From: a virus
Direction: 5' to 3' (one strand)
Length of the DNA: 57,842 nucleotides
Virus record (IMG/VR): IMGVR_UViG_3300038856_000076
Location: 1-57,842 of that record
Shown here one piece after another: positions 56,586 through 56,868 of this stretch (positions within the stretch are counted from its first letter, which is position 1; every line of letters starts with the position of its first letter). Made by a program: the position numbers and the translations under genes. The notes under the pieces are model-generated. The model searched no databases. It was not told where the DNA came from and worked only from the letters and a program-made list of their open reading frames with translations.

Positions 56586-56868
56586 TCAGTGCCTCATAAA
56601 CTGAGACTGTAACGAGCGTTCCGAATTCGGATCGGACGCGCACTGTTGCAGTGGCTGCTCAGTGCCTCATAAACTGAGACACGTGGAAGGACAGAGAATA
56701 CACCCTCAAGTTGCCGGTTGCAGTGGCTGCTCAGTGCCTCATAAACTGAGACACGGTGCCGAAATTAAAGAATGGCGACCGTCAGGGCGTTGCAGTGGCT
56801 GCTCAGTGCCGAAGTCATCGACGCGACGGCGTTGCAGTGGCTGCTCAGTGCCTCATAAACTGACAGAC
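56586..56868. CRISPR. CRISPR-like mini-array (36-bp repeat, 3 full + 2 partial/degenerate copies), no adjacent cas genes
   Basis: The repeat GTTGCAGTGGCTGCTCAGTGCCTCATAAACTGAGAC occurs at 56645-56680 and 56717-56752. A 23-bp 3' fragment lies at 56586-56607, a 22-bp 5' fragment at 56789-56810, and a degenerate copy at 56831-56868. The unique spacers are 37, 36 and 36 bp. The repeat contains a CTCAGT…ACTGAG stem. Confidence 0.45.

Follow-up and report, generated by a model that had tools for sequence, protein, structure and literature searches.

The stretch of viral DNA examined here comprises 57,842 nucleotides (IMG/VR virus record IMGVR_UViG_3300038856_000076, positions 1 to 57,842) and is referred to as the window throughout. 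It is a segment of a tailed-phage genome, with genes for TerL, portal, major capsid (major head), tape measure and a primase-like protein. Close to its end, at 56572-56868, we find a short CRISPR array, in which five copies of a 36-nt unit recur with a period of 72-73 nt (sequence inspection, repeat search and TRF). Its repeat very probably belongs to the family of subtype V-M, the effector of which is Cas12m, and the array is an orphan with no cas12m gene adjacent to it. A near-identical genome, the 129,510-bp ENA contig ERZ27291567 k141_81811, was found via the primase-like protein and the YunG-like protein encoded directly upstream of the array. Two stretches of this contig are used below, namely L081, which holds its version of the array, and L082, the upstream flank with a tRNA cluster. 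The array is composed of the following parts:

56572-56607, plus strand: R1, first repeat, GTTGAAATGAAGACTCAGTGCCTCATAAACTGAGAC; the 3' 22 nt equal the consensus, the 5' 14 nt have diverged (8/14)
56608-56644, plus strand: spacer S1, 37 nt, 57% GC; shared with L081
56645-56680, plus strand: R2, intact V-M-type repeat, GTTGCAGT[GGC]TG[CTCAGT][GCC]TCATAA[ACTGAG]AC
56681-56716, plus strand: spacer S2, 36 nt; missing, together with one repeat, from the 99.8%-identical ENA contig
56717-56752, plus strand: R3, intact V-M-type repeat, identical to R2
56753-56788, plus strand: spacer S3, 36 nt; also in L081
56789-56810, plus strand: R4, the 5' 22 nt of the repeat alone; the 3' pseudoknot strand is deleted
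56811-56830, plus strand: remnant of a fourth spacer, 20 nt
56831-56868, plus strand: R5, degenerate terminal repeat, 38 nt; a CA insertion (ACTGA-CA-GAC) disrupts the 3' strand of the pseudoknot

The consensus repeat is GTTGCAGTGGCTGCTCAGTGCCTCATAAACTGAGAC, and R2 and R3 are exact copies of it. With up to three mismatches allowed, the 36-mer occurs three times in the window, compared to 0.00 expected occurrences in 100 shuffles, and the 36-mer search placed the unit nowhere else in the window beyond the copies described. All spacers are unique and recur neither in the window nor in the retrieved loci, except for S1 and S3 in the near-identical genome. The locus combines more than three direct repeats, of a length within the 23-47 nt typical of CRISPR arrays, with unique spacers of similar length. 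It also has the properties of a virus-borne mini-array: it is located in a viral genome, has few spacers (three and a remnant), and the window is devoid of cas genes. An earlier note on this DNA, made from the sequence alone, had described a 36-bp repeat alternating with unique spacers, and this pattern is real, with spacers of 37, 36 and 36 nt and two exact repeat copies. From its inventory of copies, we retain the two full ones, the 5' fragment and the terminal copy with a 2-nt insertion, while the supposed 3' fragment turned out to be R1, a full-length copy with one diverged half. Since the unit that starts with R4 measures 42 nt instead of 72 nt, a deletion of about 30 nt has presumably removed the end of R4 and the start of the fourth spacer.

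The assignment to subtype V-M builds on repeats that are physically linked to cas12m. A degenerate two-repeat pattern (GTTGCAG...ACTGAGAC, spacer, GTTGCAG) retrieved the metagenomic contig L205, where an array of at least ten repeats (GTTGCAGTGCCCAGCTCAGGGGCTTGATAACTGAGAC) with spacers of 36-37 nt starts 65 nt after a gene for a 591-aa protein. This protein exhibits a TnpB/Cas12f-like C-terminal domain and matches solved Cas12m structures with E-values of 4e-129 (PDB 23vw), 3e-30 (Cas12m2, 8hhl) and 4e-27. Across 99% of the L205 protein, a protein encoded by a Syntrophomonadaceae metagenome-assembled genome (MAG) shows 100% identity. In a global alignment, 30 of about 37 positions match between the phage repeat and the L205 repeat (~81%), which is the closest repeat found; three further Cas12m loci provided none that is closer. 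Two MAGs, one from Peptococcaceae (L203) and one from Nitrospirae (L105), have homologues of the L205 protein adjoining arrays of a similar kind, and both repeats align with the phage repeat as well. As side observations, at 6400-7334 of L205 the array is split by an insertion of about 1 kb that encodes an Imm33 immunity protein and a helix-turn-helix protein, and several DNA methyltransferases as well as a uracil-DNA glycosylase flank the locus.

The phage repeat also aligns with eight experimentally studied Cas12m repeats, e.g., Tf GUUGCAAUGCCUAGCUCAGAGGUUUAAAGACUGAGAC (Bigelyte et al. 2024, PMC11013384, Table S5). Four of these eight share the motif GCUCAG...ACUGAGAC with the phage repeat, and the other four show compensating changes at those positions. 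In its general layout, the array agrees with the known arrays of subtype V-M, formerly V-U1 (Wu et al. 2022; PMC10442227; PMC11013384). The repeat has 36-37 nt, begins with GU and ends with ...GAC; a central (A)GCUCAG-type core is complementary to the 3' CUGAG and thereby forms the pseudoknot, next to a short covarying stem; spacers have 36-37 nt, and the orientation of the repeat relative to transcription is the same, in a subtype that needs no trans-activating CRISPR RNA (tracrRNA). The period is close to the 73-74 nt of bona fide V-M arrays. In contrast to these arrays, no cas12m was detected next to the phage array, in the window or on the 129.5-kb contig, there are just three or four spacers, and several repeats are damaged. 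Furthermore, the stem of the phage repeat has 3 bp, as in the GoCas12m repeat, and not 4 bp, and its nearest relative is the ~81% identical repeat of L205.

Exact searches returned no matches for the 36-mer in GTDB genomes and IMG/VR, and none for the 3' 23-mer in IMG/VR and the JGI metagenomes. Rfam yielded no match to a CRISPR-DR family, neither at the gathering threshold nor in a permissive array scan. A degenerate genome scan with three occurrences of ACTGAGAC gave at least 120 matches, mostly unrelated arrays ending in ACTGAGAC; among the scan matches listed, the repeats first extracted agree with the phage repeat in 19 of 36 positions at best, and the L105 and L203 loci were later recognised as V-M arrays. 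An affiliation with a cyanobacterial class 1 (Cas6-type) repeat carrying a ACUGAGAC handle was considered and dropped in view of the cas12m-linked relatives and the fit to the pseudoknot.

The fold provides a further line of evidence. In the cryo-EM structure of Cas12m2 with its CRISPR RNA (crRNA), the 36-nt repeat scaffold consists of a short stem and a pseudoknot, in which positions -22 to -17 pair with -8 to -3, and the spacer follows directly (Omura et al. 2023, PMC10442227). Written as RNA, the phage repeat reads GUUGCAGU[GGC]UG[CUCAGU][GCC]UCAUAA[ACUGAG]AC, such that R2 and R3 can form all three stem pairs and all six pseudoknot pairs, i.e., the nine scaffold pairs of the Cas12m2 fold. 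We counted pairs in an alignment of twelve repeats, comprising the phage repeat, the three cas12m-linked ones and the eight published ones. Here, 88.9% of the cells are paired, compared to 73.7 +/- 2.2% after shuffling; none of 500 shuffles reached the observed value, and slid controls gave 21-50%. Compensatory changes on both sides occur at seven of the nine scaffold pairs.

A covariance model was built from twelve V-M repeats with the phage repeat excluded, and was scored on both strands of the window plus L082 (80.7 kb) with filters off. R2 and R3 ranked first (25.9 bits, E 2.6e-5) and R1 third (16.1 bits, E 0.02), while R5 reached 13.9 bits (E 0.083) and a solitary unit in the tRNA cluster 11.3 bits (E 0.49). 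The earlier note had proposed a CRISPR-like mini-array whose repeat should match a known CRISPR repeat family. Sequence alignment, scaffold pairs and the independently trained model agree on V-M as this family, and we consider the membership highly probable on these grounds.

Outside the array, two more loci resemble the repeat:

L082 6646..6611, minus strand: solitary unit similar to a V-M repeat, GTTTGTGTAGAAGCTTAGTGCCTCATAAACTGAGAC; some 3.1 kb upstream of the first window position
32855-32889, minus strand: divergent candidate for a solitary V-M-like unit, GUCAUAUAACCUGUGCAGAGGUUUGGAUACUGCAC; located between genes in a short gap; covariance model score 14.6 bits (E 0.054 for the 80.7 kb)

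The first one is located between tRNA-Leu(CAA) and tRNA-Leu(UAA), on the strand of the tRNAs, with no second repeat nearby. Compared to the array repeat, 21 of its 3' 22 nt are conserved, but merely 8 of its 5' 14 nt. The single change in the 3' part keeps the pairing as G.U, so the pseudoknot is intact, whereas the stem is broken. R1 presents the same picture, with an intact pseudoknot helix and a broken stem. A hand-calculated one-sided Fisher test of the asymmetry between 3' and 5' part gives p ~0.0015 for R1 and ~0.008 for the solitary unit. Judged from these sequences, such a contrast between the halves is unlikely under uniform decay, and some constraint acts on the pseudoknot, the loop and the 3' half. 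The candidate at 32855-32889 may be a second divergent unit or a chance match; it contains an extra 4-bp stem (AACC/GGUU) that is outside the model, at about the expected place.

The version of the array in L081 lacks exactly one 72-bp unit, i.e., one repeat and S2, and the rest is unchanged. This difference rests on a single genome pair, and it fits array dynamics as well as simple repeat recombination or assembly collapse. The earlier note had named conservation of the whole block across related genomes as an outcome that would speak against a CRISPR array; a 99.8%-identical genome without one repeat-spacer unit does not fit a rigidly conserved block.

No core cas gene was found in the window by PADLOC, Pfam or the Cas12m profile, and the array is an orphan on this account. 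PADLOC and Pfam, applied to 82 open reading frames (ORFs) of the window, hit nothing but a generic DEDDh exonuclease and a weak Cas3-like match. A tblastn and Cas12m profile search over six frames of the window and its flanks (L081-L083) revealed no Cas12m (best profile E 0.014). Database-wide, the same profile collected 126 homologues, and none of the best 120 of these 126 could be placed on the 129,510-bp contig. Hence the attribute "Cas-less" in the earlier note holds for the window and the sequenced flanks, and for the larger contig the evidence is good, though indirect. Two large ORFs, of 819 and 994 aa, were tried as compact Cas12 proteins and rejected: the first is major-vault-protein-like and the second remained without matches. 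The 819-aa ORF (42221-44680, plus strand) has domains of the major vault protein, namely MVP_shoulder with E 1.7e-25 and Vault_3 with E 4.4e-11; for a phage, this seems to be an unusual gene.

Directly upstream of the array, the accessory operon ends with this gene:

56181-56576, plus strand: YunG-like gene, last gene of the plus-strand accessory operon (Pfam YunG, E 4.9e-21)

The ORFs of 55129-56576 overlap head to tail and form a tightly packed plus-strand operon, which the array follows directly and in an orientation equal to the direction of operon transcription. The first position of R1 is 56572, and the TGA stop codon of the YunG-like gene (56574-56576) is thus located within this repeat. 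Transcription of the array is therefore probably brought about by read-through from this gene. A scan of 55500-57842 detected no terminator-like sites. A promoter-like match in R1 (TTGAAA-18-TAAACT) was dropped, being not above shuffle expectation.

The 3' side of the array borders a repeat-rich and GC-rich noncoding block of about 1 kb (56869-57842; L081 11591-12318). The GC content amounts to 54% in the array and 52% in this block, compared to 44% in the whole phage. Its repeats comprise a 15-nt tandem repeat in three copies (57013-57057), numerous CGGGTGG/CCACCCG motifs and an inverted repeat of 23 nt (57247-57269 / 57580-57602); a hairpin with a 10-bp stem is located at 56945-56968. An AT- and purine-rich low-complexity stretch comes next, after which, in the ENA contig, CTGCTCGC-type tandem repeats extend to the contig end. 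Possible roles of this region are those of an origin, a partition site or a genome terminus.

On the ENA contig, the window spans about positions 71,013-128,782, with 99.8% identity over the overlap, and the element therefore extends beyond the window. Only 1.9 kb past the YunG-like gene, the contig terminates in low-complexity repeats. Just upstream of the window, it carries 21 tRNA genes and a ParB gene (L082 1177-7157 and 8596-9606). The element is a large tailed phage and may be a phage-plasmid. No cultured relative was found by a BLAST search of the array region and the structural module against INPHARED, and a synteny check via the YunG-like and HAD_SAK_2 neighbour genes yielded no relatives in IMG/VR. 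Among the YunG homologues, identity falls from 100% to 57% without intermediate relatives. Auxiliary genes at 37856-38404, 49500-52108, 52520-53212 and 3218-3907 encode a peptide deformylase, two weak Rieske-like ORFs, a HAD_SAK_2 protein and a dGTP diphosphohydrolase-NUMOD4 protein; thioredoxin, nucleoside 2-deoxyribosyltransferase and a trypsin-like protease are also encoded in the window.

Most likely, the array guides, or titrates, a Cas12m that originates from the host or from another mobile element. Cas12m processes its precursor crRNA itself, without a tracrRNA, and binds DNA flanked by a protospacer adjacent motif (PAM) without cutting it, thereby blocking transcription or replication (PMC10442227). 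As a first step, we envisage a plus-strand transcript of the array, probably the read-through product described above. Each intact repeat in this transcript would fold into the Cas12m crRNA scaffold, with a 3-bp stem (GGC/GCC) and a 6-bp pseudoknot helix (CUCAGU/ACUGAG), then AC, and the spacer immediately 3' of it. A Cas12m acting in trans, encoded on the host chromosome or on a co-resident plasmid or prophage, would then process and load the array RNAs. With S2, S3 and possibly S1 as guides, it would suppress the transcription or replication of what these spacers match; competing mobile elements are the most plausible targets. Because Cas12m binds PAM-adjacent DNA without cutting, phage guides would silence rather than destroy. 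The phage RNAs would also occupy Cas12m molecules that could otherwise be armed against the phage, and all copies, the degenerate ones especially, would compete for them. We lean, by a modest degree, toward a guide function with Cas12m supplied in trans, and include in this the small chance that the phage itself encodes cas12m, beyond the sequenced part of its genome. A more elaborate and rather doubtful variant is a dual strategy, in which the intact S2 and S3 units direct Cas12m repression of genes in the host or in rival plasmids and phages, and the half-degenerate copies (R1, the tRNA-operon unit and perhaps 32855-32889) act as RNA anti-CRISPRs.

Several observations weigh against a guide function. 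No protospacer was found for any spacer in the window, the 227 retrieved loci, INPHARED and PLSDB, where all matches were at chance level. An IMG/VR search for the PAM-proximal first 20 nt of S2 and S3 retrieved no exact match, and a comparison of the spacers with 80 related IMG/VR loci (about 10 kb on each side of the terminase gene) gave no match either. The expectation of the earlier note that the spacers could reveal targets was therefore disappointed in these collections, and so was the hope that the repeat would point to the host: in exact searches of GTDB, IMG/VR and JGI, neither a host nor a co-resident element came up whose repeat is identical or nearly so, and the closest repeat found is the ~81% identical one of the Syntrophomonadaceae MAG locus. 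The nearest repeats come from anaerobic Bacillota MAGs. The sole named homologue of the phage peptide deformylase, from a Gemmataceae MAG (44% identity), is uninformative on the host. Moreover, promoter and terminator signals of the array do not exceed chance in a shuffle comparison, the absence of Cas12m from the 129.5-kb contig is indirect for about 61 kb, and the contig may not be the whole genome. Finally, the array has just two fully intact repeats out of five, and a unit is missing in one strain, both of which would be equally compatible with a decaying relic.

Instead of guiding anything, the array and the scattered units could serve as a pure RNA decoy that titrates a resident Cas12m from phage-directed crRNAs, either in the manner of the RNA anti-CRISPRs (Racrs) or as a competing non-targeting crRNA. 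The location of the solitary unit within a tRNA operon and on the tRNA strand would make high expression and processing plausible, and the 15 nt from this unit to the next tRNA are too few for the heteroduplex of 17 bp on which Cas12m depends. Exactly the pseudoknot, the loop and the 3' end are retained in R1 and the solitary unit, and the spacers have no detectable target in the databases searched. There are also precedents, as viral solitary repeats inhibit types I-F, I-C, I-E and V-A, and a non-targeting crRNA lowers interference as well (PMC10651486). A decoy would not, however, need unique spacers of the canonical 36 nt between intact repeats. The stem is broken in both R1 and the solitary unit, such that binding of either by Cas12m is putative, and the solitary unit alone does not exceed 11.3 bits on the V-M model. 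All in all, we regard a pure decoy as unlikely.

About the same low probability is assigned to a decaying relic, according to which the phage or an ancestor once held a complete V-M locus, cas12m was lost, and the array now erodes without function. Such an origin would be in line with V-M loci being known on plasmids and some prophages (PMC11656645), and the elevated GC content of the array and the downstream block suggests that they are foreign. Three of the five repeats are damaged (the 5' half of R1, the truncation and ~30-nt deletion at R4, the insertion in R5), and the near-identical strain has lost a whole unit. The distribution of the damage fits this explanation less well: the 3' 22 nt are perfect in R1, R2 and R3 and nearly so (21/22) in the distant solitary copy, whereas R1 and the solitary copy are diverged over their 5' 14 nt, a pattern that is not expected from uniform neutral decay. 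A degenerate terminal repeat, furthermore, is normal in functional CRISPR arrays. Regulatory mini-arrays typically carry one divergent repeat (10.1101/2023.03.03.530964).

That the unit is no CRISPR repeat at all, but an iteron, a packaging site or the binding site of a regulatory protein, belonging to the adjacent noncoding region, is close to refuted: the array does border about 1 kb full of other repeats, has no Rfam CRISPR-DR match and no exact copy of its repeat in the public collections searched, but the unit fits the Cas12m family by sequence, length, period, stem and pseudoknot geometry and an independent covariance model, and the recurrence in related phages that the earlier note had named as a sign of iterons or packaging repeats was not seen in the related-phage loci retrieved around the terminase gene (no relative covering the array region was recovered).

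Guidance or titration of Cas12m in trans, which we continue to favour, has parallels in several known systems. Virus-borne orphan mini-arrays (Faure et al. 2019; Medvedeva et al. 2019, PMC6858448) are likewise short, cas-less and terminated by a degenerate repeat, with an effector presumed to act in trans. They can exclude related viruses (PMC6858448) or mimic the regulatory mini-arrays that repress cas genes (10.1101/2023.03.03.530964). The known ones, in contrast to the phage array, have repeats identical to those of the host and spacers against related viruses, neither of which was found here; and the phage array is of the V-M type, whose effector silences instead of cutting. A literature search of a limited collection brought up no published orphan V-M mini-array and no V-M-type solitary repeat in a phage. 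The Racr solitary units (Camara-Wilpert et al. 2023, PMC10651486) are comparable to the solitary unit away from the array and to R1 with its partial scaffold, both of which could bind the effector without guiding it. Racrs, however, follow their own promoters and are often located near acr genes, while the phage unit is part of a tRNA operon and has a disrupted stem. V-M systems show an enrichment on plasmids, also occur on some prophages and have been linked to competition between mobile elements (BMC Biol 2024 review, PMC11656645). A September 2026 preprint claims the first phage-encoded Cas12m, in the myxophage MV-1 (10.64898/2026.09.14.751636), while the 2024 review already reports V-M on prophages (PMC11656645). 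These complete systems share with our locus a V-M array on a phage and the lack of adaptation genes, and the MV-1 spacers are also without identifiable targets; in contrast to the array described here, cas12m adjoins theirs.

Orphan viral mini-arrays, solitary repeats and V-M loci on plasmids, on prophages and in a myxophage are thus already known, and what is distinctive in the present case is a partner effector that represses and does not cut. We know of no Racr described for subtype V-M, and a dual strategy of guides and decoys, if true, would not yet have been described for this subtype either. Viral mini-arrays and solitary repeats are established ways to hijack or jam the CRISPR system of a host, and the described cases involve cutting effectors. 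If our interpretation is true, a V-M guide made by a phage would be a natural CRISPR-interference device, which silences chosen genes of the host or of rivals without destroying them. Since V-M systems reside mainly on plasmids, and also on some prophages, the array points to conflicts with three parties, namely phage, plasmid and host. For the question which parts of its scaffold Cas12m requires for loading, the two intact repeats and the two copies that retain the pseudoknot half make a simple set of testable RNAs. Even if the array is a relic only, it documents the capture of V-M CRISPR sequence by a large, tRNA-rich phage.

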